From the NCBI GenBank assembly GCA_012225525.1, contig GCA_012225525.1_3923.1: 64,000 nt of DNA. One strand, given 5' to 3'. This document shows positions 2,456-56,057 of this stretch, one piece after another (positions within the stretch are counted from its first letter, which is position 1; each line of letters begins with the position of its first letter). Below the pieces are notes generated by a model. It was not told the DNA's origin. It saw nothing but the letters and a program-made list of their open reading frames with translations, and ran no database searches. The position numbers and the translations under genes were made by a program. The stretch is from a phage.

Positions 2456-3924
2456 TGGCAGGATTAACTACAACAGGATTACAAACTCTAAGATATCAGG
2501 AAATTTTTGATAATATCAAATCAAGACTTCTTAGAGATATTTCACCAAACCTTGACGTTTCTGAAGATAGCCAATTAGGTCTCTTCCTAGCTTCAATTGC
2601 AAGGTCTTTAGCAGATACACATGAGATTCTATCAGAAATCTATGACGGCGGGACAATTGACAAGGCTGAAGGATTTAACCTTGATGATATTACAGCTTTG
2701 AATGCTGTATACAGATATGTTGCTCAGGCAACAAGGGGTCAGGTTGAGTTTACTGGAACAACTGGTGCTACCATCTCTTCAACAACAAGATTGAGAAGTA
2801 CTGCTGGAAATATCTTTTATCCAGTTAACAATATTACCCTTACCCCATCATATTGTGTTGAAGCTGTTCTTGAAGTTAACTCTTTACGAACTGATGCAGA
2901 TTATGTTATTATTATTGATAACGTTATTTTCTCGTATAAACCAACCTCATCAGACACAATTACCACACTACTAACTAAATTAGCAGAGGCTATTAATGGT
3001 GGTATTGTAGCAAAAGCAGAAGTCATTAATGATGGAGCCGCATTAAGAGTCTATAAAGACGAAGGTGATATCATTGCAAGAACAAACCCTATGGTTGTCA
3101 CTGCAACAACGTTTCTGACCTTTACAAAGATTACAACTATTTCAGATGTAGTAGCTGAAGAGGTTGGTGCTACCCCTGCTTTGGCTGGTACGCTTATTGA
3201 GATTGAGACAACTGTTGATGGTCTTGACAGTATTTATAACAGGTATGACTTAACAACTGGTAGAAACGAAGAAACTGACACAGAACTTAGACAGAGATAT
3301 TTAGAATCCTTAGCAGTTACTGGTGTAGGGACTTTGGATGCAATTGTAGCTGCTGTTAAAAGAGTTCAAGGGGTCTCAGATGCTTCAGGTGTTGAAAATG
3401 ATACTGAAGAGACGAACTCAGAAGGTCTTCCACCAAAATCTTTTAAGATTGTCGTAGTTGGTGGTCAAAATGATAATGTTGCTCAAGCAATCTGGGATAC
3501 AAAACCTGCTGGTATTAGGGCTTATGGCTCGATTTTTGGCACAGCCTATGATTTAGGTGGTTTAGCACATAATATTTATTTTAGCAGACCAACACCAAAA
3601 TACGCATTTGTTAAAGTCTCTTACTCTTTATATGACGAAGAGAGCTTGACAATCCCTGAAGAGGATATCAGAGACAGTATTGTACAAGGTATTAATGCCT
3701 ACGGAAGAACTCTTAAGGTTGGTAATGACGTTATCCCTAACAGAATTTATGGGTACATCTATGACGTAATCAAAGGTATTGAGATTAATGAGGTGAAGGT
3801 AGCATTATCAAACAGCCAATCAGTTCCACCTAGTGACGAACAATATACTACAGCAAGAATTACTGTTGACGGTGACCAATATACTGTTTGGGAAAGTAGC
3901 CAGTATACCATCACTAAGGAGTAA
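2455..3924 (+). CDS. putative baseplate J-like protein
   Basis: 489 aa ORF, Thr/Ser/Val-rich, in the baseplate position before the tail-fibre genes; context only. Confidence 0.4.
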
Positions 3925-12465: not shown

Positions 12466-12640
12466 TTAATGAGTCTATGTTTGTAGCTCTGACCTTTTCA
12501 CGTTCATCATTAAGATAATCATCAAGAGCCTTTTCAATCTGTGAATCATCTTGACAGATGACTGTAAAGACTGTAAAGCCGTCTGTATCGTCAATTATCT
12601 TACCATAACCGCTTCTGGGATGTAACTTTTTAAGAGCCAT
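12428..12640 (-). CDS. hypothetical small protein
   Basis: 70 aa ORF overlapping neighbour; lysine-rich C-terminus. Confidence 0.3.
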   Translation of the reverse strand: MALKKLHPRSGYGKIIDDTDGFTVFTVICQDDSQIEKALDDYLNDEREKVRATNIDSLIDTSRKRKKKDE

Positions 12641-12641
12641 A

Positions 12642-13025
12642 TCAAATACCTGTGCAGCTTCTGTTTTCTAAGAAATACTCAACACCATACATAGCTTTTT
12701 GCATCAAATCTTCTTTAAACTGGATACGGTGGTTGAGCATCGCCTGTACATCAATATCATCATGGTGCTTCTCTTTAATATTTGCAGATTGCAGGAAATA
12801 CTCTGCAAGAACGCGATATTGATAGTCAGTTACCTTATCAGTCATCTCTGTTAAAGACTCTTCAGAGATTGGTTTAAGTAGCTCACCATTGGCCAGAGCA
12901 ACACCTTTTACAATCTGGCAAGTATCCTCTGGAACACCTGATAAGTCCACATTTGGAAGTTCTGTTGCATTGACTGATAAATTCATTGCCATAACCATTG
13001 CAGCAGCTAATAAAATCTTTTTCAT
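12642..13025 (-). CDS. secreted/periplasmic protein
   Basis: N-terminal signal peptide MKKILLAAAMVMAMNLSVNA. Confidence 0.5.
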   Translation of the reverse strand: MKKILLAAAMVMAMNLSVNATELPNVDLSGVPEDTCQIVKGVALANGELLKPISEESLTEMTDKVTDYQYRVLAEYFLQSANIKEKHHDDIDVQAMLNHRIQFKEDLMQKAMYGVEYFLENRSCTGI

Positions 13026-39211: not shown

Positions 39212-39482
39212 AGAAAAGTGGGAGATTTTACCATTAGTCAGTGAAGGAGGTAATGGTTGTGAAATGTACATGATACGTGGTCATGTTCCAGAGCCAATTG
39301 CACTTGAGATGGTAAACAACTTTACAGATGGTTCTTACAAAGACTTAGGCGAACCAACTGTCAAGCAACAATGGGTTAAACCTGTACCAGACAGCACAGG
39401 TAACTGTAGTGTACTTTATCACGTTGTAGACCCTGCAAAATGCAAATCTGCAATGGCAGTAACAAACGTAACTTTTGATTGA
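39204..39482 (+). CDS. hypothetical protein
   Basis: 92 aa ORF. Confidence 0.35.
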   Translation: MTKEKWEILPLVSEGGNGCEMYMIRGHVPEPIALEMVNNFTDGSYKDLGEPTVKQQWVKPVPDSTGNCSVLYHVVDPAKCKSAMAVTNVTFD

Positions 39483-40375
39483 GAGAGAAAACTATGAAAA
39501 CATCTATCCGTGTTACAGTTCATTCACCAACTAAAGGGACTCATGAAGAAGAGTTTAACATCGTCCAATTCCCTTCTGGTGAGATTGGTGGACACTTTTC
39601 GCCAGAGTTTGTTGATTTTACTGCTTATGCAGCATCATCCATCAACAATGTGATTATGATTGTAAAAGGTTATGACAAGGACACATTGTTTGCTGTGGCA
39701 CTTGCTAAAGAAGCAATTGATGATTTAATTCCTCATGATTATGCTTTAAAGACTGTCATCTTTTACTACTTACCAAATGCACGATATGACCGTCACATGT
39801 TTAAAGGTGACGCAGCAGCTTTAAAGGTTTTTGCTAAACAGATTAATGCAATGGGATTTGGCGCAGTCTGTGCAGTTGACCCTCACAGCTATGTACCAGA
39901 TAACCTGTTTAACTGCTTCCAGAGTATTCCTCAAAAGGAGATTGCAGTCCACTATGCAAATGACCCACTGATTGATTACTTAGTAGCCCCAGATGCAGGT
40001 GCTGCTAAGAAGATTGCAGAGACTGCTAAAGAGGTGGATAAACCATATATCACAATGTCTAAAGTACGCAACCTTAAGACTGGTGAAATTACTGGTATGC
40101 GAATCCTTGATGATGTTGATTTGACAGATAAAACCGTCATGATTCTGGATGATATCTGTGATGGTGGTCGAACCTTCATAGAAGCAGCTAAACATCTTCG
40201 TGAAGCAGGTGCAAAACGTGTGGAACTCTATGTAACACACGGTATCTTCTCTAAAGATGTTGAAAACCTTCTTGACAATGGCATTGACCACATCTACACT
40301 ACAAACTCTTTAGGGGAAGCTAAAGACCGTGGCTTAACACATTATGGTCAAGTTACTGTAGCAAACCTTGATTGA
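39479..40375 (+). CDS. ribose-phosphate pyrophosphokinase (PRPP synthetase)-like protein; candidate ADP-ribose pyrophosphate synthetase
   Basis: 298 aa; Prs-like motifs YLPNARYDR (Prs YARQDR), VDPHS (Prs DLHA) and PRPP-binding loop VMILDDICDGGRTF. Confidence 0.75.
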   Translation: MREKTMKTSIRVTVHSPTKGTHEEEFNIVQFPSGEIGGHFSPEFVDFTAYAASSINNVIMIVKGYDKDTLFAVALAKEAIDDLIPHDYALKTVIFYYLPNARYDRHMFKGDAAALKVFAKQINAMGFGAVCAVDPHSYVPDNLFNCFQSIPQKEIAVHYANDPLIDYLVAPDAGAAKKIAETAKEVDKPYITMSKVRNLKTGEITGMRILDDVDLTDKTVMILDDICDGGRTFIEAAKHLREAGAKRVELYVTHGIFSKDVENLLDNGIDHIYTTNSLGEAKDRGLTHYGQVTVANLD

Positions 40376-40384
40376 AACTTTATA

Positions 40385-40406
40385 GGGGCTTAAAAGCCCC
40401 ATTTTG
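40385..40406 (+). terminator. hairpin, possible weak terminator
   Basis: GGGGCT-taaa-AGCCCC hairpin followed by ATTTTG. Confidence 0.4.
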
Positions 40407-40420
40407 AGAGAGATTAAAAG

Positions 40421-42202
40421 ATGACTAAATCACTTTATGCAGTACCAGCAGGTTTAAACGCAGATGCTTACAAATCTGGTCATGTTTACCAGTACCCTAG
40501 TGCAACAGAGTACTTGATGTTCAACCTGACACCACGTAGTGACAAATGGTTTAACAGCCCCTTAGCAATTGATGGTGTAGTAGCTTTTGGTATTCAACGT
40601 TTCGTTAAAGATTACTTGATAGACCACTGGAACGCCACTTTCTTTGAACGTGATAAAAAAGAAGCCATTGATGAAATCTTAGAAGTCATGAATGGTGTTC
40701 TGGGTAAAGATGCTATCGGTCGAGAGCATTGGGAAGCACTTCACGACTTAGGTTATCTACCAGTTGAAGTATACGCTGTAGAAGAAGGTACAGTTGTTCC
40801 TATGCGTGTACCAATGATTGTCTTCCAGAACACTGTTTCAGGTTTCCATTGGGTAGCGGGGTATCTGGAAGATGCTTTCTCTGCTGAGATTTGGAAGGCT
40901 TGTACCATTGCAACTATTGCATTGCATTATAAACGCATCTGTAAGAAGTGGGCTGACCTTACTTGCGACAATGACTTACATTTGCCTTATCAGTGCCATG
41001 ACTTTGCTATGCGTGGTATGTCCGGCTTTACTGATGACGCATTTAACGCTGTAGGCCACTTAACCAGCTTTAAAGGAACTGATAGCTTCCCTGCTGTGTA
41101 TACGGCTAAACGAATCTATGGACAGTCTTACCCAATCTCTGATATTGGTAGCTCTGTACCAGCCACTGAGCACTCTGTAATGTGTGCAAACATTGCTTGG
41201 GAAGGTGGTAATGATTTGGTTGAAGAAGAAAGACGCTTTAAAGGTGAGTTACAAACCTTCCGTCGTTTCTTAACAGAAACTTACCCAACTGGTATTGCAA
41301 GTGTTGTTTCAGACACTTATAACTTCTGGAGAACTGTGTCAGAAATCTTACCAGCACTTCGTAAAGAAATTATGGAACGTGATGGCAAACTGGTAATTCG
41401 TCCTGACTCTGGAGACCCTGTACATATTGTCACAGGTTATAAAGCAATCCACTTAGAATGTGCTAAGAAGGCTTATTACGAGCACCTAATCAAGCTGGAA
41501 GCCAGTGACACAATGTTGAATGCTGTTCTGAACATGAAGCTTGAAAACATCAACTATGGTATTGCTGGATGGCTACTGTCAGAAGGCTACGAAATGGTTG
41601 TTGACAGAGAAGACTTTGAAGTTGCTGATACAGTGATGTTGAAAAACGCCTATATGGTTGGTTCTGCAAACGTTGTAACACGTCCTGTAGCAGAGATTGA
41701 TGGGGCCATTAAGACCTTGTATAACATCTTTGGAGGAACTATCAACTCTAAAGGGTTTAAGGTACTGGATGAGCACATTGGCCTTATCTATGGTGACTCT
41801 ATCACGTTGGAACGTGCAAACGAAATCCTGAAGCGTTTGTATGAAATGGGTTTTGCAAGCTCTAACGTAGTGTTTGGTGTAGGTTCTTACACTTACCAGT
41901 ACATGACTCGTGACACCTTTGCATTTGCTGTCAAAGCAACTCTTGCAAGCATTGGTGGTAAAGAGATTATGCTTGCAAAAGACCCTAAAACAGATAGCGG
42001 TATTAAGAAGTCTGCTTTTGGTGGTGTAGCCCCTATGTGGGATGGTGAGAATCTGAAAGCTGTAGATGGCTATGGATTCCAGAGTTTTGCAGATGCACTT
42101 GAGCATCCAGCTTGTGCTTTACGTTTAGTCTTTAGCGACTCTGAGCAGTTCGGCTACACAACTCTTGGCGATATTCGAAATAATATTGACAAGCAGCTTT
42201 AA
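40421..42202 (+). CDS. nicotinamide phosphoribosyltransferase (NAMPT/NadV)-like protein; candidate nicotinamide ADP-ribose transferase
   Basis: 593 aa ORF immediately after the Prs-like gene; assignment from overall family resemblance and the conserved gene pairing, not a specific motif I can verify by eye. Confidence 0.6.
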   Translation: MTKSLYAVPAGLNADAYKSGHVYQYPSATEYLMFNLTPRSDKWFNSPLAIDGVVAFGIQRFVKDYLIDHWNATFFERDKKEAIDEILEVMNGVLGKDAIGREHWEALHDLGYLPVEVYAVEEGTVVPMRVPMIVFQNTVSGFHWVAGYLEDAFSAEIWKACTIATIALHYKRICKKWADLTCDNDLHLPYQCHDFAMRGMSGFTDDAFNAVGHLTSFKGTDSFPAVYTAKRIYGQSYPISDIGSSVPATEHSVMCANIAWEGGNDLVEEERRFKGELQTFRRFLTETYPTGIASVVSDTYNFWRTVSEILPALRKEIMERDGKLVIRPDSGDPVHIVTGYKAIHLECAKKAYYEHLIKLEASDTMLNAVLNMKLENINYGIAGWLLSEGYEMVVDREDFEVADTVMLKNAYMVGSANVVTRPVAEIDGAIKTLYNIFGGTINSKGFKVLDEHIGLIYGDSITLERANEILKRLYEMGFASSNVVFGVGSYTYQYMTRDTFAFAVKATLASIGGKEIMLAKDPKTDSGIKKSAFGGVAPMWDGENLKAVDGYGFQSFADALEHPACALRLVFSDSEQFGYTTLGDIRNNIDKQL

Positions 42203-46433: not shown

Positions 46434-46982
46434 ATGAAGAAATTGATTCTAGGTTTGTGCTTAATGTTTACAGCACACTTATCTTATGCAGTTGACTGCC
46501 CAGAGCTATCAATTAGCCAAAAAGTGAACATGTTAAAAGCTTACCAGTATGGTGAGAATAACATGGGTAAAGGTTGGGGTATCACTCTAGCAGCTATAGC
46601 CTTACAAGAGTCAGAGTTAGGTCTGAAGGTAGAAAATAAAAAGACCCATGACTATGGTATCTTCCAGAATCACTTGAAGACTGTTGTAAAGCGTAACAAA
46701 ATTAGTCCTAATGTTGCTAAAAAGAAACTCTTAAAAGATTTTGACTATGCCGCAAAAGAAACACATAAAGAGCTTGAGTTTTGGACGAAGGTACATGGTC
46801 ACCCAAAGTCAAAGAAGACTTTACAAAAAGTTTTAGCATCATATAATGCTGGGTATTCGTACAGAATCCCTAAAGCTAAGAAATACTCTCAAGATGTCTA
46901 TAACAATATGAAAGTTATCGCTCAATGTGAATTTGCAACAAACATTTCTAAGGTAAATCATGAAAAAATTAAGAAAGTCTGA
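46434..46982 (+). CDS. secreted lytic transglycosylase (SLT domain)
   Basis: Signal peptide MKKLILGLCLMFTAHLSYA; SLT-like motifs ALQESELG (catalytic Glu-Ser), YGIFQ and SYNAGY. Confidence 0.55.
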   Translation: MKKLILGLCLMFTAHLSYAVDCPELSISQKVNMLKAYQYGENNMGKGWGITLAAIALQESELGLKVENKKTHDYGIFQNHLKTVVKRNKISPNVAKKKLLKDFDYAAKETHKELEFWTKVHGHPKSKKTLQKVLASYNAGYSYRIPKAKKYSQDVYNNMKVIAQCEFATNISKVNHEKIKKV

Positions 46983-47655
46983 TGAAGTCCTGTGCCACGC
47001 TTATGACTTGCATCCTCATGAGTTAGGTCTTGATTCCTGTGTATGGACTCCAGAACAGTGCAGAGATTTTGAAGACACTGCAAGAGAGGTTGTATGTTCA
47101 CTTGAAGAGTTCCACACATCAGAACCCATTGTGAACGTTGTGGACAAAGAGACTGGACAAACTATAGGTGTAAGGCGTGATAGTTTAGTGATAGTCAATA
47201 AAGACCTTGTAGAAAAAGGTAACCTCATCTTAGCAGATATTGATGGTGTTCTTACAAATTTTAATCACGAAGATTGCTCAACGGAATTGACTGATGGGTC
47301 ATTCTCACAGTACACTAATCTTCTTGATTCTGTAAGAGCAAAACCAACATATGTTTTCAACATTATTGATGCAATTGCAAATCATGCAGCAGTTGGACTC
47401 TTGACAGCAAGAGGTGAATCTCAGAGAATACCTACTGAGATGTTTTTAAGGCACAATATAGAGCATGATTACTTGCTTTTTATGCGTGGTTTTGGAACTA
47501 ACTCTATAAGTGCAGAAAGTTTGAAAGTGAGGATGATTCAGTCTTGCATTCTTCCTTACTTTAATATAGTATGCTTTATAGAAGATACAGAGAAGAATGT
47601 TCAGAAGGTAAACAGAATCCTTCCACACATTAAAACCATGTTAGTTAAACATTGA
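46960..47655 (+). CDS. putative HAD-superfamily phosphatase
   Basis: Motif I-like LILADIDGVL and C-terminal acidic FIEDTEKN; weak. Confidence 0.35.
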   Translation: MKKLRKSDEVLCHAYDLHPHELGLDSCVWTPEQCRDFEDTAREVVCSLEEFHTSEPIVNVVDKETGQTIGVRRDSLVIVNKDLVEKGNLILADIDGVLTNFNHEDCSTELTDGSFSQYTNLLDSVRAKPTYVFNIIDAIANHAAVGLLTARGESQRIPTEMFLRHNIEHDYLLFMRGFGTNSISAESLKVRMIQSCILPYFNIVCFIEDTEKNVQKVNRILPHIKTMLVKH

Positions 47656-49289: not shown

Positions 49290-49491
49290 AAAGACACGGA
49301 AACTCATCCGGTCAGCAGTATTCATTGGAAGAAATGAAGTCATCCCGTTTACAGCAAACGATGTGATAGCCTACAGGAAAAACTTAGTATTTAGTGATTG
49401 CTTGCGTGGCTTCATCTCCCAACCGTTGGAAGACTTTAAAAGCCGTTGTGGTAAAGGTATCATCATTCAAGAGGCAATTATCAATGGCTGA
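49264..49491 (+). CDS. hypothetical protein
   Basis: 75 aa ORF. Confidence 0.35.
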   Translation: MRVILARDKKTRKLIRSAVFIGRNEVIPFTANDVIAYRKNLVFSDCLRGFISQPLEDFKSRCGKGIIIQEAIING

Positions 49492-49684
49492 CTTCTGCAA
49501 AGACTGTTCTATAGAAATGTTTGGACGTGATACAGGTGACTTAAAAGGTCTTATCACTGAGGATGACTTTAAAGCTGGCTACGCAATGCCAGTAATCTGT
49601 GAAGGCTGTGGGTGCATCTGGGTAGACCACGAAGGACAGCGTGTAAAACCTTCAGAAGATAAAGAGTCTTGGGAGAGATGTTAA
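49484..49684 (+). CDS. small zinc-ribbon protein
   Basis: Start at internal ATG 49484 (MADFCKDCS...CEGCGC); 67 codons (66 aa plus stop). Confidence 0.4.
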   Translation: MADFCKDCSIEMFGRDTGDLKGLITEDDFKAGYAMPVICEGCGCIWVDHEGQRVKPSEDKESWERC

Positions 49685-50470
49685 ATGGGTATTGTAAAAA
49701 TAATCAATGGTGATATCTTTGCCGCATTTGATAAAGGTAAGTTTGACATCATCGGTCACGGTTGCAACTGTATGAATTTAATGGGTGCAGGTATCGCTGA
49801 CAAGATTTCTAAACTTTACCCAAAAGCATATGAGACCGATACAGAAGTTTATCTATATGCAGGTGGTATAGGACACAAACCCTGTGAAAATTTACTGGGT
49901 AATTTCTCTGTAGCACGTTTAAAACAAGGTCGTATAGCTAACCTTTACACTCAGCTTAAGACTGGTAAAGATGCCCGATACAGTGCTTTAGAGTCATCTT
50001 TGAAACAGCTTAACAGATACTGTGAAGTTAATCAGTTGAAGAAAGTTGGTTTACCTATGATTGGTGCAGGTATTGGTGGGCTGGACCCTCAAGCTGTCAT
50101 AGTTATCATCAATCAGGTGATGAAGAGTGTAGATGTTTATCTGTATGTCTATGAAGGAGAGATGTACCACAAGTTACGCTCAGGTTGGAAGAACTACTGT
50201 GAACCAGAATACTTTGCAGGTGTAGCAGTGTTCACAGATAACGCAGTTACCCTCTTCAGACGAAGAAAAGGTAAGATACATCAAAGTAACCCTCCGGTTG
50301 AAAAGATGTCTCTGAGTAACGCTCTAGTTACCCACCTGTCGAAGAGCAATCACAGGATTGCAGTAACATTTGGCAGTGATGCAGATACTTATATCTATGC
50401 AAGAACTGATGAGGATATCGAGACAGTTTTCTCTTCACCAGAAGTTACCTTCTTAGACGCAAAGAACTAA
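49685..50470 (+). CDS. macrodomain protein (TARG1/DarG-like ADP-ribose-processing fold) with extra C-terminal domain
   Basis: N-terminal INGDIF...IIGHGCNCMNLMGAGIA...PMIGAGIGGLD parallels TARG1-type motifs (GDLF...H..S.DC.MGAGIA...PRIGCGLD); about 110 aa C-terminal extension of unknown fold. Confidence 0.65.
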   Translation: MGIVKIINGDIFAAFDKGKFDIIGHGCNCMNLMGAGIADKISKLYPKAYETDTEVYLYAGGIGHKPCENLLGNFSVARLKQGRIANLYTQLKTGKDARYSALESSLKQLNRYCEVNQLKKVGLPMIGAGIGGLDPQAVIVIINQVMKSVDVYLYVYEGEMYHKLRSGWKNYCEPEYFAGVAVFTDNAVTLFRRRKGKIHQSNPPVEKMSLSNALVTHLSKSNHRIAVTFGSDADTYIYARTDEDIETVFSSPEVTFLDAKN

Positions 50471-50538
50471 GAAACTCTGTAGAATATTCACAATAGACTA
50501 AGCCTTTCTTATCTGGTAAATTTTTCAGGTAAGGAGGG

Positions 50539-50724
50539 CTTTTTCATTTCAGGATTGTGCAGGTAGAGTTCTGTAGAGAAATCTGTAGAGAGAATTTTGA
50601 ACTCCAAAGAGAAAATTCATTTTCAAACTGTGCAGGTAATCTCCAAAGAGCTTTTTCATTTTCAAAACGTGCAGACCCCGCTCAGGTCGGGCAAGAAAAA
50701 TCATTTTAGAATTGTGCAGGTAGG
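50539..50724. repeat. four direct repeats of a 25-28 nt motif, followed by a C-rich tract
   Basis: CTTTTTCATTTCAGGATTGTGCAGGTAG, AAAATTCATTTTCAAACTGTGCAGGTAAT, CTTTTTCATTTTCAAAACGTGCAGACC, AAAAATCATTTTAGAATTGTGCAGGTAGG; then CCCCTCTCCCCCTCTTACTCCCCCTCTCCCC at 50748-50778. Confidence 0.7.
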
Positions 50725-50979: not shown

Positions 50980-51360
50980 ATGGCATATCGTGCACCTAAA
51001 TTCATCAACAAAGACAACTTTCGCAACGCACTGGAGAAGTCACTTGATGAAAATTTTAAAGGTAACATTATCGTTGTTCACGCATTCAATTTTAAGTATG
51101 ATGTAAACGGGAATAGAATCAACCATTACACGGCAACCATGTCAGATGGTACACTTTCAAGTGAAAAAGCCGTACTAAATGCACTGGCAGGACGTGGAAA
51201 GGTATTAGTAAGATGTGATAAGAGACGTTATCAGGGCGGCGCATATGGTTATGATGATGCTGTTTACCATCTTGAAAATATGGGCTATCAAGTAGAAAAA
51301 GCTGGAGCATCACAAATCATCGGCAGCGATGGTTATGTAACAATCTTCAAAATTAACTGA
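50980..51360 (+). CDS. small early-type protein 1
   Basis: 126 aa; ATG preceded by conserved CCTTAAACTAGGAGATTCAAAA leader. Confidence 0.6.
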   Translation: MAYRAPKFINKDNFRNALEKSLDENFKGNIIVVHAFNFKYDVNGNRINHYTATMSDGTLSSEKAVLNALAGRGKVLVRCDKRRYQGGAYGYDDAVYHLENMGYQVEKAGASQIIGSDGYVTIFKIN

Positions 51361-51448
51361 TAAAGTACTTTACAAGGGGCTTATAGTTCGATAAAGTAAG
51401 CCCCAGATAAAGAGCTTTACCACTAAATCCTAAATTGGAGATTCAAAA
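51357..51448 (+). promoter_or_regulatory. type-1 intergenic cassette (hairpin plus conserved AGATAAAGAGCTTTACCACT box plus conserved RBS leader)
   Basis: GTACTTTACAAGGGGCTTAtagttcgataaagTAAGCCCCAGATAAAGAGCTTTACCACTAAATCCTAAATTGGAGATTCAAAAATG; near-identical copies at 51737, 52811, 53598, 54876. Confidence 0.7.
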
Positions 51449-51739
51449 ATGGCTACTATCAAAAACGTTGTAATTCCTGTAAAAACTCGTGATGACGCTC
51501 GCATCATGGCGAAAAAGTTAGGCGGGAAAGTGGTTGACAACGGAAAACAATCTGCTGTAAGATGGGGTGTGAAGGCTGATAAACAGTTGAAGTTAAAAAA
51601 TTCACCAATAAATCTTTTTACATGTGTAAACACTATCGGAAAGACAAATGTATACACGAAAAAGGCATATATTAGACGCGTAGCCTTAACATCTCCAATT
51701 CGTACAATGAGAGGTTATGCAAAGCTGAAAATTAACTGA
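51449..51739 (+). CDS. small early-type protein 2 (basic)
   Basis: 96 aa behind a type-1 cassette. Confidence 0.6.
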   Translation: MATIKNVVIPVKTRDDARIMAKKLGGKVVDNGKQSAVRWGVKADKQLKLKNSPINLFTCVNTIGKTNVYTKKAYIRRVALTSPIRTMRGYAKLKIN

Positions 51740-51827
51740 TAAAGTACTTTACAAGGGGCTTAAAAGTTGGTATCTTAAGCCCCAGATAAAGAGCTTTACC
51801 ACTCAATCCTAAACTGGAGATTCAAAA

Positions 51828-52124
51828 ATGAAATTACCAAATAAAGTTCGTGAAAATCTAAGCAAATTACTCAACAAAATTGATTTCATTGAAACATCAA
51901 GAAATAGCCATGATGTTATGGAATGGTTACACGGCAAAATAAAAGGTCGTCGTGTAGTGATTTGCTTATGGAATAGTTGCAGGGAGTATAAAAAACCTGT
52001 ATTGCAAGTTAATATCTATGATGATACTCTTAAAAGTCCTGTCAAATCTAAAAGCGATTTACTAGATTCTTATGAGATAACTGTAAATGGCAAAGTGTCA
52101 CGTAAAGAGGAAGCACCATGTTAA
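51828..52124 (+). CDS. small early-type protein 3
   Basis: 98 aa behind a type-1 cassette. Confidence 0.6.
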   Translation: MKLPNKVRENLSKLLNKIDFIETSRNSHDVMEWLHGKIKGRRVVICLWNSCREYKKPVLQVNIYDDTLKSPVKSKSDLLDSYEITVNGKVSRKEEAPC

Positions 52125-52450
52125 TGACTGGTATCACTGCAATCATTGCCATTTTCGCGCTCTATAAGGCATATAAAGCCTATAATCTAGCAAATAAGGC
52201 AATTACACAACAGGTTAGCAATAACCTTGTAATGAGCTTTCTAGAGCGGTTGAGCGATGAACAATTAAAGCGGTTAGAAATGAGCTTCAGATTCAGGGCG
52301 AGAACTTATCAAATCAGCGACATTTTCAAAGATGATTTTCAATTAGTCGATGATTATAATTCTCTGATAAATGCTTTAAATATTAGTGACTTAAAAGACT
52401 ATCATACTGTAATTGTTCAAGAGTTGAGCAAACGAAAACAAAACTGTTGA
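52118..52450 (+). CDS. small membrane protein 4
   Basis: 110 aa, N-terminal TM helix (TGITAIIAIFALY); overlaps previous stop. Confidence 0.5.
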   Translation: MLMTGITAIIAIFALYKAYKAYNLANKAITQQVSNNLVMSFLERLSDEQLKRLEMSFRFRARTYQISDIFKDDFQLVDDYNSLINALNISDLKDYHTVIVQELSKRKQNC

Positions 52451-52540
52451 CACTGGTTTTTAGATAGATTAAATTACACATCAACGGGGAGGGAATGACC
52501 TTCCCCACTAAATAAAGTCCTTAAACTAGGAGATTCTAAA
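52447..52540 (+). promoter_or_regulatory. type-2 intergenic cassette (promoter TTGACA-17-TAAATT, GC hairpin, conserved RBS leader)
   Basis: TTGACActggtttttagatagatTAAATTacacatcaacGGGGAGGGAATGACCTTCCCCactaaataaagtccttaaactaGGAGAttctaaaATG; related copies at 53310, 54556, 55462, 56057, 56389. Confidence 0.7.
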
Positions 52541-52813
52541 ATGTATACTACTAACAATGGCCGCACTTTGAACGTCACACTACGTCACTATGTAGATGGT
52601 GTCATGCACTTTGAAGATTTACAAGCTGAACAACATATCTTAGATTGGCAAGTCGCAGGACTCCAAAAAACTGCTACGGGATACGGTAAAAAGATTCCAA
52701 CTAGTTGGAAAGTTCACTATGAAGGACGTTTGCGCAGAATTTATCAAGATGTGCAAAGCAATAGTGCATCGAGTTACATTATAGTAAAAGGTAAAAAACT
52801 GCATTTAGTGTAA
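52541..52813 (+). CDS. small early-type protein 5
   Basis: 90 aa behind a type-2 cassette. Confidence 0.6.
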   Translation: MYTTNNGRTLNVTLRHYVDGVMHFEDLQAEQHILDWQVAGLQKTATGYGKKIPTSWKVHYEGRLRRIYQDVQSNSASSYIIVKGKKLHLV

Positions 52814-52896
52814 AGTACTTTACAGGGGGTTATCAAGCTGATAAGATAGCCCCAGATAAAGAGCTTTACCACTAATCCTAAATTGGAGATTCAAAA

Positions 52897-53301
52897 ATGG
52901 CTATCAATAATCGTGAATTATCAATCTTAAAAGCACGTTTGACCGTTAATCGAATCAATGTTATCACGTCATCAGCACCGGATGAAACATTGCACAACAT
53001 TATCGGAAAGATTCAAAGCGTTATCTTAGACGTTGAAAACGTAAAAAGTTCATTGGCTGACGTTGCAGCAGGTATCACGCTAGACGGTGCGCAATATGAA
53101 ATGGCTGACATGTTAGGCAAATCAAAGGTAATGAATAAAGAACTTGATTTAAAAATGTTTCGATTTGCCGTGAAAGTATGGCTATCCGTCGAGTATGACG
53201 CTAATTTTGCAATCGCTGATTTCTTCGCCACTTGGTTGCAACGTAATTTGACAAATCATGATTTTCGTGACATCTGCGACGCAATTTATGCAGAACTCTA
53301 A
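52897..53301 (+). CDS. small early-type protein 6
   Basis: 134 aa behind a type-1 cassette. Confidence 0.6.
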   Translation: MAINNRELSILKARLTVNRINVITSSAPDETLHNIIGKIQSVILDVENVKSSLADVAAGITLDGAQYEMADMLGKSKVMNKELDLKMFRFAVKVWLSVEYDANFAIADFFATWLQRNLTNHDFRDICDAIYAEL

Positions 53302-53402
53302 AAATTTTATTGACACTGATTTTTAGATAGATTAAATTACACATCAACGGGGAGGGAATGACCTTCCCCACTAAGTAAAGTCCTTAAACTAGGAGATTCA
53401 AA

Positions 53403-53600
53403 ATGGCTATTATCAACGGTTTAACCATTGAAACCACGCACATCAAAGACATTAAAGTTGGTGATGTAGTTCTTTCCCACGGCGTAGAAAAAACAGTCAC
53501 TGCAAAGGATATCAAAGATGATTCTTTCATGGGTAGAACTCTCTTCGGTGATTCTTATTGCTTAGGTTATCTTGCAGTTTTAAAAGTTGTCAAAAATTAA
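53403..53600 (+). CDS. small early-type protein 7
   Basis: 65 aa behind a type-2 cassette with TTGACA-17-TAAATT promoter at 53310-53338. Confidence 0.55.
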   Translation: MAIINGLTIETTHIKDIKVGDVVLSHGVEKTVTAKDIKDDSFMGRTLFGDSYCLGYLAVLKVVKN

Positions 53601-53693
53601 CTGATAAAGTACTTTACAAGGGGCTTATAGTTCGATAAAGTAAGCCCCAGATAAAGAGCTTTACCACTAAATCCTTAAACTAGGAGATTCAAA

Positions 53694-54236
53694 ATGAAAT
53701 GCTTTCACGGTACTACTCAAGAAAACTTTATCAACCTGATTAATAACGGTGATAAACCATCAGGTGTATGGAATTGTTCGGATATGGACGGCAATTTTTA
53801 CGTGTACCCAGAAAATAAACTCTATGGTGATGATGAGGAAGAGATAGCATCGGAAGGTATCCAGCAAGCTCTAGGAAATGCCACTATCACGGCAGCTTTT
53901 CAGATGAAAACTCAAAATATTGTTATCTTAGAACTTGACATTCCAGAGGATGAGCTAAATGATGATTATTCTTGTGATAACATGTCAAATATAGCAAGCT
54001 TTACAGAGTACTTTGATGTAAATTGGATTAAAAAGGTCTATACAACAGAGTTCAACGCTATGTATTCACCTTTTTGTCTCCCTTCACTGGATAACCCAAA
54101 TTTAAATTATCTTGATGAAACATTGGAGCTACTTGCTAAAAGTATCCAACAATCCGACAGTATTCAGGTTTTTTGTGACATCATGGATACACTGACAGAA
54201 AACATTGTAGAGAGTGATTTAAAGGTCTTTTTCTAA
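53694..54236 (+). CDS. acidic protein 8
   Basis: 180 aa, rich in Asp/Glu (DDEEEI, IPEDELNDDYSCDNM); behind a type-1 cassette. Confidence 0.6.
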   Translation: MKCFHGTTQENFINLINNGDKPSGVWNCSDMDGNFYVYPENKLYGDDEEEIASEGIQQALGNATITAAFQMKTQNIVILELDIPEDELNDDYSCDNMSNIASFTEYFDVNWIKKVYTTEFNAMYSPFCLPSLDNPNLNYLDETLELLAKSIQQSDSIQVFCDIMDTLTENIVESDLKVFF

Positions 54237-54302: not shown

Positions 54303-54536
54303 ATGCTTACAACCATTTATCTCATCCTTTCCATTTGTAACGGCCATTCATGTGACTTTAAAGGGCTTGAAGAGTTTACAGGAAGTAAAGAAAATGCTAT
54401 TCAAGTTTGCCAGATAGCAAGACAAGACTACCCCGCCAGTGATGATATACAATGTTACTTTAAGACAGAAGATGACGAAGGAATCTATTTCGACAGTGTC
54501 GATGGTCAATATGAAATTATCATTGAAAAAGACTAG
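54303..54536 (+). CDS. small acidic protein 9
   Basis: 77 aa; own short leader with a GGGGCTTTTAGAGGGCTT stretch upstream. Confidence 0.5.
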   Translation: MLTTIYLILSICNGHSCDFKGLEEFTGSKENAIQVCQIARQDYPASDDIQCYFKTEDDEGIYFDSVDGQYEIIIEKD

Positions 54537-54629
54537 ACAAGCCTGATAAAAGTCTGTAAATTATCAATCAACGGGGAGGGAATGACCTTCCCCACTAAGT
54601 AAAGTCCTTAAACTAGGAGATTCCAAAAA

Positions 54630-54878
54630 ATGTATACTAAAACTCAACTAAAAAACATGGTTAGCAATGGCTTAATGGATGAAGTCTATAAAGAGTGTAG
54701 ACGCTACGGGGAAATTAAGGATAAGACTAGTTATGAGTATACCCACACAATAGACTTTAAAACCAATGAGAAGAGGACTGACCTTGTTACTGTAGTAGTG
54801 ATTGAGTATAAACGAATTATTTGGACCTTTGAGCTAGTAAAAGGTGAGTGCACAGAGATAGAATATAAAGACGCTTAA
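54630..54878 (+). CDS. small early-type protein 10
   Basis: 82 aa behind a type-2 cassette. Confidence 0.6.
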   Translation: MYTKTQLKNMVSNGLMDEVYKECRRYGEIKDKTSYEYTHTIDFKTNEKRTDLVTVVVIEYKRIIWTFELVKGECTEIEYKDA

Positions 54879-54963
54879 AGTACTTTACATGGGGCTTATT
54901 AGTCTGTATAGTAAGCCCCAGATAAAGAGCTTTACCACTCAATCCTAAACTGGAGATTCTAAA

Positions 54964-55305
54964 ATGGCTTATGTAACCGTAATTACCGATAAAGCTGGCT
55001 CATCTTGGTCAACTCAAGTAAGTGATAAGATGTCACCTATGCAGTGCCTAAAATACTTTGAACAGTGGAACAAAGGCGAGGGTGTAAGCCCCTTTCAAGT
55101 GATGCAAATCATCCATACAGATAACGAAGGGAATAAAACGACCTTGAACAGTGAATACTACGCAAGCCGTTTTGAAACGAGAAGTAAAACAATGAAGCTT
55201 TTACGTGAATCCGGTTATGCACATATTGCCGCTTTAATCTGGGATGACCTGCTAAAAAGTCAGCGTATCAGCTATGTAAAACCTGAAAAAATATTCATCA
55301 GTTAA
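54964..55305 (+). CDS. small early-type protein 11
   Basis: 113 aa behind a type-1 cassette. Confidence 0.6.
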   Translation: MAYVTVITDKAGSSWSTQVSDKMSPMQCLKYFEQWNKGEGVSPFQVMQIIHTDNEGNKTTLNSEYYASRFETRSKTMKLLRESGYAHIAALIWDDLLKSQRISYVKPEKIFIS

Positions 55306-55433: not shown

Positions 55434-55462
55434 TTGCAAAGGCAAATCAAAACAAGTATAGT
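55434..55462 (+). promoter_or_regulatory. sigma70-like promoter
   Basis: TTGCAA, 17-nt spacer, TATAGT, just upstream of a type-2 hairpin/RBS leader; further TTGACA motifs at 55338 and 55351. Confidence 0.55.
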
Positions 55463-55526
55463 ACTAATCAACGGGGAGGGAATGACCTTCCCCACTAAGT
55501 AAAGTCCTTAAACTAGGAGATTCAAA

Positions 55527-56057
55527 ATGAACAAGTTTCAAGCTATCAACTACATTCGCTCATCTAACGTTATGACTAAACCCGTTAAAGATACCTTCGA
55601 ATTTCGTTGCAACGGTGTACACTTTGCAACTATCACTAAATCAGAAAACGGGGCTTATTATATACATCGTCGTAATGTTTCTACTGTTGTAGTATCTCAC
55701 TTTATGCAAGCTGTAGCAGAACTGTTACCGCTATTCTTAGGTATTTACTTAGATGAGTGTAAAAACGTTCGCAACCACGTTAAAGACCTTTTAAATGGTT
55801 ATAAAATGGCTTATGAACGTTCTATCAAGAATCTTAACAAGTTCTATAAAGCCCCTGAAAACACCGTATCAATAGCTTATGATGTAAGCGGTGAAATGGT
55901 CAACCTCTCCAATGTAGAACAAATTGGCCTTTATGATTTACGTCCTAGCGGTTATTCTAAGACTCTCGGTGAAGGCTTATCCTTCAATATCAAGAACTTA
56001 GAAAAAACTTTAAAAGATATTGAAAAAGATATTGACGAGACAATCAAAAGTCTGTAA
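55527..56057 (+). CDS. early-type protein 12
   Basis: 176 aa behind a type-2 cassette. Confidence 0.6.
   Translation: MNKFQAINYIRSSNVMTKPVKDTFEFRCNGVHFATITKSENGAYYIHRRNVSTVVVSHFMQAVAELLPLFLGIYLDECKNVRNHVKDLLNGYKMAYERSIKNLNKFYKAPENTVSIAYDVSGEMVNLSNVEQIGLYDLRPSGYSKTLGEGLSFNIKNLEKTLKDIEKDIDETIKSL

Follow-up and report, generated by a model that had tools for sequence, protein, structure and literature searches.

A Felixounavirus macrodomain protein of the T4 Tk.4/AdfM family with an orphan C-terminal domain and a putative role against DarT2

Within a 64,000-nucleotide stretch of phage DNA (contig GCA_012225525.1_3923.1 of assembly GCA_012225525.1, the window below) we analysed a gene whose product, here called the macro protein, belongs to the macrodomain superfamily, more exactly to its ALC1-like class (the TARG1/DarG/Poa1p/SCO6735 clade) and to the phage protein family phrog_335. 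With moderate confidence we take it to be an ADP-ribosyl-DNA hydrolase of the Tk.4/AdfM family that would counter DarT2 by means of a SCO6735-like Asn/Gln site, and that carries a lineage-specific accessory domain. The anti-DarT2 role is the best-supported reading, which we infer by homology at about 35% identity, because T4 Tk.4 lies in the same PHROG, shares the motif NLYTQ and, when knocked out, leaves T4 sensitive to DarTG2. The original prediction, made from the sequence alone, had raised an anti-DarT function, and this idea is now backed by experiment on the T4 homologue. Counter-defence macrodomains are thus a known kind, with T4 Tk.4/AdfM as the example, and what is added here is an orphan C-terminal domain. 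Felix O1-like phages are widely used for typing, biocontrol and therapy of Salmonella and E. coli; if the reading is true they carry an inbuilt counter to DarTG2, which would bear on the prediction of host range.

The gene and its surroundings

The macro gene is an open reading frame at 49685-50470 on the + strand that encodes 261 aa between an ATG start and a TAA stop, as found in both the ORF listing and the sequence itself (Table 1). The stop codon (TAA, 49682-49684) of a 66-aa upstream ORF directly adjoins its ATG. The transcription unit ends at the hairpin at 50500-50541, with the macro gene as its final gene, and terminators are annotated under the corresponding stretch in the relatives KhF2 and XTG1. 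This unit is placed within an array of non-structural genes on the same strand, in the order NAMPT, one ORF, rIIA, rIIB, lysin, 'polynucleotide kinase', spanins, four small ORFs and the macro gene.

Table 1. Coordinates of the features discussed, numbered from the first letter of the window
Feature	Coordinates	Strand	Basis
CDS, macrodomain + C-terminal domain (Tk.4/AdfM-family, Felixounavirus)	49685..50470	+	ORF listing, phrog_335, heid gp44 match
Shine-Dalgarno-like GGGAGAG, 7 nt 5' of ATG	49671..49677	+	read from sequence
Macrodomain, residues 1-157	49685..50155	+	Pfam Macro, AF2 pLDDT, Foldseek
Loop 1, H25-G-C-N28-C-M-N-L-M-G-A-G-I-A38, Poa1p-like HxCNC....GxGIA	49757..49798	+	conservation + alignments
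N86-L-Y-T-Q90 motif	49940..49954	+	30-member conservation, HMMER, BLASTP
Loop 2, P124-M-I-G-A-G-I-G-G-L-D134, diphosphate-binding, glycine-rich	50054..50086	+	conservation, TARG1 alignment
C-terminal domain, residues 158-261, orphan, fast-evolving	50156..50467	+	
Intrinsic-terminator-like hairpin, 17-pair stem then T-run, 30 nt past stop	50500..50541	+	terminator scan
PRPP-synthetase-like gene	39479-40375		
NAMPT gene	40421-42202		

The DNA of the window shows 94-96% identity with that of Felix O1-like myoviruses (Ounavirinae, Felixounavirus) from Escherichia, Salmonella, Shigella and Citrobacter. At the protein level, gp44 of Escherichia phage heid (heid_44, 'putative phosphatase') is 99.6% identical to the macro protein, and a tblastn search found at least 80% of the macro protein encoded in about 258 phage records, which speaks for a real and conserved gene and excludes a chance ORF. 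The frame and the motifs quoted in the original prediction proved to be exactly as claimed. In the related genomes (about 250 phages) the product is annotated as 'macro domain protein' or 'phosphatase'; the latter label, in GenBank as in PHROGs, is a transferred annotation of putative function. The Zn-ribbon-like upstream ORF was considered as a conserved partner and rejected, as it is absent beside the macro gene in Wc4 and phiEa104.

The original prediction had also set the macro gene in one block with a pair of NAD+-related genes, as part of an ADP-ribose theme. The pair exists, in the form of the NAMPT gene and a PRPP-synthetase-like gene, and a genome-level NAD+/ADP-ribose counter-defence theme is plausible, but a linked module finds no support. 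The pair ends 7.5 kb upstream of the macro gene with about 13 unrelated genes between, including rIIA/rIIB, lysin and spanins, and the two share only the strand and the long leftward gene array. On these grounds we rejected the idea that the macro gene and the NAD+ salvage genes form a functional operon. The annotation of a related Felixounavirus genome holds no ADP-ribosyltransferase, NADAR, KptA or RNA ligase, and so neither a phage pair of ADP-ribosyltransferase and eraser nor a KptA RNA-repair module was retained as a candidate.

Macrodomain fold and active site

The N-terminal portion matches Pfam Macro (PF01661) over residues 25-141 at 31.9 bits, against a gathering cut-off of 22 (E=1.4e-7), and residues 1-260 match phrog_335 ('phosphatase') at E=2.3e-113. 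An AlphaFold2 model of the full-length protein, built with a 30-sequence alignment, has a mean pLDDT of 90.5 and a pTM of 0.88; averaged over blocks of 10 residues, pLDDT is 88-97 for residues 1-160, with the exception of 77 at residues 121-130. The predicted fold is the three-layer alpha/beta fold of macrodomains, and the glycine-rich ADP-ribose-binding loops MGAGIA and IGAGIGG are both conserved. When this model was compared to the PDB using Foldseek, residues 1 to about 157 superposed on TARG1 (TM 0.86), BT1257 (0.82), Poa1p (0.76) and the DarG macrodomains of Thermus and Mycobacterium (PDB 5M31/5M3I; TM 0.80-0.82) with a probability of 1.00, and with no alignment reaching into the C-terminal part. 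The proposal of a macrodomain thus held both in the HMM searches and in fold prediction with superposition on DarG and TARG1.

A similar picture emerges when the family profile is run against PDB sequences. Human TARG1/OARD1 is the best solved match (E=9e-17), as it is in structure, and is followed by M. tuberculosis DarG (2.4e-16), Poa1p (3e-14), SCO6735 (PDB 5E3B) and Taq DarG (1e-13 for each of the latter two), the match to SCO6735 being no better than those to TARG1, DarG or Poa1p. The top matches, from E=9e-17 to 1e-12, all belong to the ALC1-like clade; alphavirus and PARP macrodomains are far weaker (E of at least 3e-3), and coronavirus macrodomains are likewise far below. The Foldseek ranking agrees with this placement, nearer to the ALC1-like clade than to macrodomains of the MacroD, PARG or viral Mac1 types.

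The residues that would form the active site are highly conserved. Residues 9-12 form the motif GDIF, residues 25-38 HGCNCMNLMGAGIA and residues 126-134 IGAGIGGLD. Among 30 family members, which are 27-95% identical to the query, the residues H25, G26, N28, C29, N86, L87, T89, Q90, P124, G127 and G129 never vary (30/30); at position 131, 20 members have Gly and 10 have Ala. N28 is equivalent to N22 of DarG (Taq), N23 of PhiKZ AdfM and N27 of SCO6735. The position of the catalytic Lys (K80 in DarG, K84 in TARG1, K78 in PhiKZ AdfM) is occupied by Q90. HMMER alignments, whether with the single sequence or with the profile, put Q90 opposite TARG1 K84 and G131 opposite TARG1 D125. BLASTP gives the same correspondence for two further proteins: in PhiKZ gp104, N28 is aligned to N23, and I-A-N-L-Y-T-Q90 lies opposite F-M-M-F-P-T-K78; in the DarG2 of a Klebsiella plasmid (WP_117121976), whose macrodomain is 29% identical (E=2e-10), N28 corresponds to the Asn of NTVNC and Q90 to the Lys of INFPTK.

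The signature of TARG1/DarG-type macrodomains given in the original prediction therefore stands in part: the neighbourhood is right and the loops are conserved, but the catalytic Lys is Q90, Asp125 is Gly or Ala, and loop 1 is more like that of Poa1p. Since the K84/D125 dyad of TARG1 is replaced by Q90/G131, we rejected a TARG1-type mechanism. With phmmer, residues 17-55 align to residues 18-56 of yeast Poa1p, and loop 1 is almost identical in pattern (IIGHGCNC....GAGIA...YPKA against ILIHSCNC....GGGIA...YPKA); it carries HxCNC....GxGIA, including the His mutated in PDB 6LFS, and H25 corresponds to Poa1p H23. Both TARG1 and Poa1p differ from the macro protein in being eukaryotic, in acting on protein-Glu-ADPr, OAADPr or ADPr-1''-P, and in having no C-terminal domain.

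The relationship to DarG is similarly partial. The DarG2 proteins resemble the macro protein in fold, in the retained catalytic Asn and in a two-domain layout of macrodomain plus C-terminal domain, but both the catalytic Lys and the C-terminal DarT2-binding domain are missing here. The DarG models of PADLOC (E=1e-12) and NCBIfam (E=2.7e-12) cover the macrodomain portion only, and the score to the latter (NF048014) is 46.6 bits, far under its equivalog cut-off of 250. Nor is there a DarT toxin gene next to the macro gene, which has small phage ORFs and spanins for neighbours. Membership of DarG was rejected for these reasons. A plasmid search with the macro protein as probe returned standalone macro proteins only.

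A parallel for the active site is SCO6735 of Streptomyces coelicolor, an ADP-ribosyl-thymidine DNA hydrolase of the same ALC1-like class, with Gln at the Lys position and a positioning Asn. There Gln85 takes the place of Lys80/Lys84, and activity is lost in the mutant Q85A and almost lost in N27S (PMC9411070). The enzyme removes ADP-ribose efficiently from DarT-modified DNA thymidine and protects cells from DarT, and its authors propose a water-initiated mechanism in which the Gln positions the distal ribose (PMC9411070). The N28/Q90 pair matches this Asn/Gln arrangement, the equivalence being transitive via the TARG1 and DarG alignments, and the active site thus points to SCO6735-type and not DarG-type chemistry. 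Loss of the Lys is no argument against activity on ADP-ribosylated DNA, because the Gln-type SCO6735 does that chemistry. The two differ in that SCO6735, from a bacterium, has one domain and a housekeeping or protective role, and in the residue two positions before the Asn (Val25 in SCO6735, Gly26 here), whose proposed role is via the backbone.

Counter-defence and alternative functions

The functional evidence comes from T4. In a preprint of November 2025, tk.4 was the single hit of a HIDEN-SEQ transposon-sequencing screen on DarTG2-expressing E. coli, a clean knockout sensitised T4 to DarTG2, and the gene was renamed adfM (10.1101/2025.11.20.689424). This evidence is a genetic phenotype, with the hydrolase activity putative, and the preprint mentions neither the missing Lys nor SCO6735 (10.1101/2025.11.20.689424). 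It agrees with the earlier finding that T4 without adfA and adfN is still resistant to DarTG2 (PMC11825919). Tk.4 matches phrog_335 at E=1.3e-65 and is 34-35% identical to the macro protein by tblastn; both have the HGCNC and IGAGIG loops and an identical NLYTQ, in which Gln takes the place of the Lys, and both are non-structural genes of lytic enterobacterial myoviruses. They differ in that Tk.4 is a single-domain protein of 155 aa, to which the macro protein adds a 104-aa C-terminal domain, in their neighbours (vs/tk.3 for the T4 gene, spanins and small ORFs for the macro gene), and in that the DarTG2 phenotype is known for T4 alone. The literature we searched contains no paper linking Felixounavirus macrodomains to DarTG.

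A second phage-encoded orphan macrodomain also called AdfM is gp104 of the chimallivirus PhiKZ, for which both biochemistry and genetics demonstrated removal of the DarT2 ADP-ribose from DNA, and which has N23 and K78 in its active site (PMC13309987). It differs from the macro protein in belonging to another macrodomain lineage (23% identity, pairwise E=3e-4, a DarG-type N23/K78 as opposed to N28/Q90), in being imported into the phage nucleus, and in having no C-terminal domain. The two proteins named AdfM, T4 Tk.4 and PhiKZ gp104, thus come from separate macrodomain lineages and probably differ in their chemistry, because the T4-type protein has Asn/Gln without the DarG Lys. That T4-type AdfM proteins, the macro protein included, share the Asn/Gln arrangement of SCO6735 goes beyond the current literature.

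In the mechanism that we propose, host DarT2 would attach ADP-ribose to thymidines in single-stranded phage DNA, and the macro protein would strip it off again, such that replication could continue on hosts carrying DarTG2. The route would be SCO6735-type as opposed to the Lys-dependent one of TARG1 and DarG: Asn28 would hold Gln90, Gln90 would position the distal ribose, and a water molecule would start cleavage of the thymine-ribose bond, with the 104-aa C-terminal domain as an accessory module packed onto the macrodomain. In favour of this is the invariance (30/30) of N28 and Q90 at the positions of the Asn/Lys catalytic pair of DarG. The related phages infect Escherichia, Salmonella, Shigella and Citrobacter, a host range that overlaps bacteria with DarTG2; for instance, searching with PhiKZ gp104 as probe located, on an IncF plasmid of Klebsiella, a DarG2 whose gene adjoins that of DarT2. 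Against it, identity to T4 Tk.4 is only about 35%, the substrate specificity of macrodomains is unreadable from sequence (PMC9503650), and the Lys of DarG and of the chimallivirus AdfM is absent, so that activity on ADP-ribosylated DNA would depend on the analogy with SCO6735.

A further point against the anti-DarT2 reading is that loop 1 resembles that of Poa1p, an ADP-ribose-1''-phosphate phosphatase. This bears on an alternative that we consider unlikely, namely that the macro protein hydrolyses a small soluble ADP-ribose derivative, not modified DNA. The substrate could be ADP-ribose-1''-phosphate (as in the Poa1p reaction, the source of the 'phosphatase' label), O-acetyl-ADP-ribose, or else an ADP-ribose-based immune signal or toxic metabolite from host NADase defences, and the macro protein would work alongside the NAD+ salvage genes of the phage. 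Apart from the Poa1p-like loop, with H25 at the place of Poa1p H23, the profile match to Poa1p (E=3e-14) and the presence in the phage of NAMPT and a PRPP-synthetase-like protein are consistent with it. Moreover, a survey of viral NAD+ and ADP-ribose systems argues that most phage macrodomains target low-molecular-weight ADP-ribose derivatives (PMC9503650). However, the sole functional data for phrog_335, those on T4 Tk.4, point to DarTG2, the NAD+ genes are not co-located with the macro gene but 7.5 kb off, and none of the makers of ADP-ribose-1''-phosphate (KptA/Tpt1, 2H phosphoesterase, RNA ligase) is annotated in the related genome. Where the macro protein has Q90, Poa1p presumably carries Ser instead of Gln.

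It is also conceivable, though in our view quite improbable, that the macro protein erases ADP-ribose from protein or RNA, placed there by the phage itself or by other ADP-ribosyltransferase defences of the host, whose marks could come from mRNA- or protein-targeting toxins. Both TARG1 and SCO6735 de-modify protein substrates as well (PMC9411070), and macrodomains are generally promiscuous (PMC9503650). Yet the related Felixounavirus genome, where many genes are hypothetical, carries no annotated ADP-ribosyltransferase, the Lys/Asp dyad that TARG1 uses on Glu/Asp-linked protein ADP-ribose is absent, and the data on phrog_335 tie it to neither RNA nor protein substrates. It is very improbable that the macro protein, having lost the catalytic Lys, is mainly non-enzymatic and either reads ADP-ribose or inhibits DarT or another ADP-ribosyltransferase by stoichiometric binding, possibly via the C-terminal domain. 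In favour of this idea, SCO6735, DarG and TARG1 go on inhibiting DarT by interaction when their catalysis is dead (PMC9411070), DarG2 has a separate toxin-binding domain (PMC11825919) and the macro protein has a second, fast-evolving one. Against it, SCO6735 shows that high activity is possible with Gln in the place of the Lys (PMC9411070), invariance of the cleft residues H25, N28, N86, T89 and Q90 and of the glycine loops in 30 members of 30-40% overall identity is the pattern of an active enzyme, and most family members, T4 Tk.4 included, lack the C-terminal domain.

The C-terminal domain

The C-terminal extension, which the original prediction had described as without recognisable motif, is a domain of about 104 aa for which Pfam, NCBIfam and PADLOC indeed yielded no significant match. 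The prediction gives it a single helix that leads into about six beta strands and a short final helix, with pLDDT mostly 86-93 in the full-length model (76-82 over residues 211-230) and 76.5 when modelled alone. A known fold is not supported, the Pfam hits being faint only (PH at E=0.15, NAC at E=0.13), and Foldseek against BFVD returned only its own family, from phage SUSP2. It is unrelated to the DarT-binding domain of DarG2 when compared by hhalign (probability 0.45%).

When a profile of the domain was searched against 1.84e9 representative proteins, it found only proteins of about 250-260 aa with the same macrodomain plus C-terminal domain layout, one 5'-truncated gene call (P0032) and one fragment; the other hits, P0033/34/36-38, were repeat or beta-propeller false positives. 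The domain is thus restricted to Ounavirinae and always fused to a phrog_335-type macrodomain, and the possibility that it is widespread or occurs on its own was rejected from the same search. Most phrog_335 members, Tk.4 among them, do without it.

The domain evolves much faster than its partner: in the Moogle-like group identity is 46-52% in the C-terminal domain and 76-82% in the macrodomain, and for distant members the values are 14-20% and 38-48%. The homologue in Pectobacterium phage Wc4 has a recognisably homologous domain (hhalign probability 96%), whereas in Erwinia phage phiEa104 the product of the syntenic gene, also 260 aa long, has an equally long C-terminal region that is unrelated (probability 0.1%). 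The domain is therefore an Ounavirinae-specific, hypervariable add-on that has been replaced by unrelated sequence in one genus, and the addition of such an orphan domain to an eraser in Ounavirinae is beyond the current literature. Rapid divergence and replacement are what is expected of an arms-race surface, and they would fit an accessory role in recognising a partner or target in conflict. As such, the domain offers a tractable handle on how phage erasers are targeted or evade host counter-measures.

A more specific version, which we regard as distinctly doubtful, is that the domain is a new, rapidly evolving module for recognising a toxin or target, with DarT2 or the ADP-ribosylated ssDNA or replisome as what it binds. 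The macro protein would then be a convergent 'phage DarG', in which a Gln-type eraser is combined with an inhibitor or targeting domain of a fold without known relatives. If this were true, swaps of the domain between Ounavirinae genera would track the DarT variants of their hosts.

The net charge of the domain ranges from -5 to +4 across homologues. It is inconsistent in sign, and so lends no support to a role in generic DNA binding or in acidic mimicry of DNA.

The C-terminal part and the name AdfM

The counterpart of the macrodomain gene in Erwinia phage phiEa104 is a syntenic 'phosphatase' of 260 aa, in which loop 1 reads AQGCNC, so that Gln replaces His25, a residue invariant in other members of the family. 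Its last ~105 aa are unrelated to the C-terminal domain of the Felixounavirus protein, as if the 3' end of the gene had undergone replacement of a module.

The name AdfM has been applied by two groups to non-orthologous phage macrodomains, namely gp104 of PhiKZ (PMC13309987) and Tk.4 of T4 (10.1101/2025.11.20.689424), and gp104 shares only ~23% identity with the family to which the present gene belongs.

Coordinates of the features discussed (in the window unless another locus is given)
Feature	Location	Strand	Character
PRPP-synthetase-like and NAMPT genes	39479-42202	+	adjoining
231-aa ORF	46960-47655	+	'polynucleotide kinase' in related phages
66-aa ORF	49484-49684	+	CxxC...CxxC spacing, Zn-ribbon-like
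36-nt pair	50544 and 50701		akin to the direct repeats
Three direct repeats	50602-50719		~34-45 nt each, core CATTTTCAAA..GTGCAG
Type 1 cassettes	51349-51451, 51728-51830, 52811-52903, 53593-53695, 54864-54966
Type 2 cassettes	52447-52540, 53310-53403, 54534-54627, 55434-55527
phiEa104 homologue	L008 (phiEa104 locus) 2998-3780		260 aa
AdfM of PhiKZ (gp104)	L006 (PhiKZ locus) 12518-13003		DarG-type, N23/K78
AdfM of T4 (Tk.4)	L002 (T4 locus) 2998-3465		Gln-type, NLYTQ

Neighbouring genes

The stop codon of the 66-aa ORF directly adjoins the ATG of the macrodomain gene. A Pfam search with this ORF gave no match, and no counterpart lies beside the macrodomain gene in Pectobacterium phage Wc4 or in phiEa104. 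The label carried by the 231-aa ORF may be partly right at most, since a HAD-like DIDGV motif is present but a Pfam search found no match at E<=0.01. Further upstream, the PRPP-synthetase-like gene, which has a TTG start, and the NAMPT gene constitute a phage NAD+ salvage pair.

Repeats and cassettes downstream

The three direct repeats lie inside a 510-bp non-coding gap that runs from the terminator of the macrodomain gene to the next gene. Two families of reiterated ~100-nt cassettes are also found, each copy immediately 5' of one of a series of consecutive small + strand genes. Type 1 consists of TAAAGTACTTTACAAGGGG, a hairpin (GGGGCTTA...TAAGCCCC), AGATAAAGAGCTTTACCACT and GGAGATTCAAAAATG, in that order, and type 2 of TTGACA-17-TAAATT, the hairpin GGGGAGGGAATGACCTTCCCC and then AGGAGATTC. 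Both families look like repeated modules of promoter, 5'-UTR hairpin and RBS.
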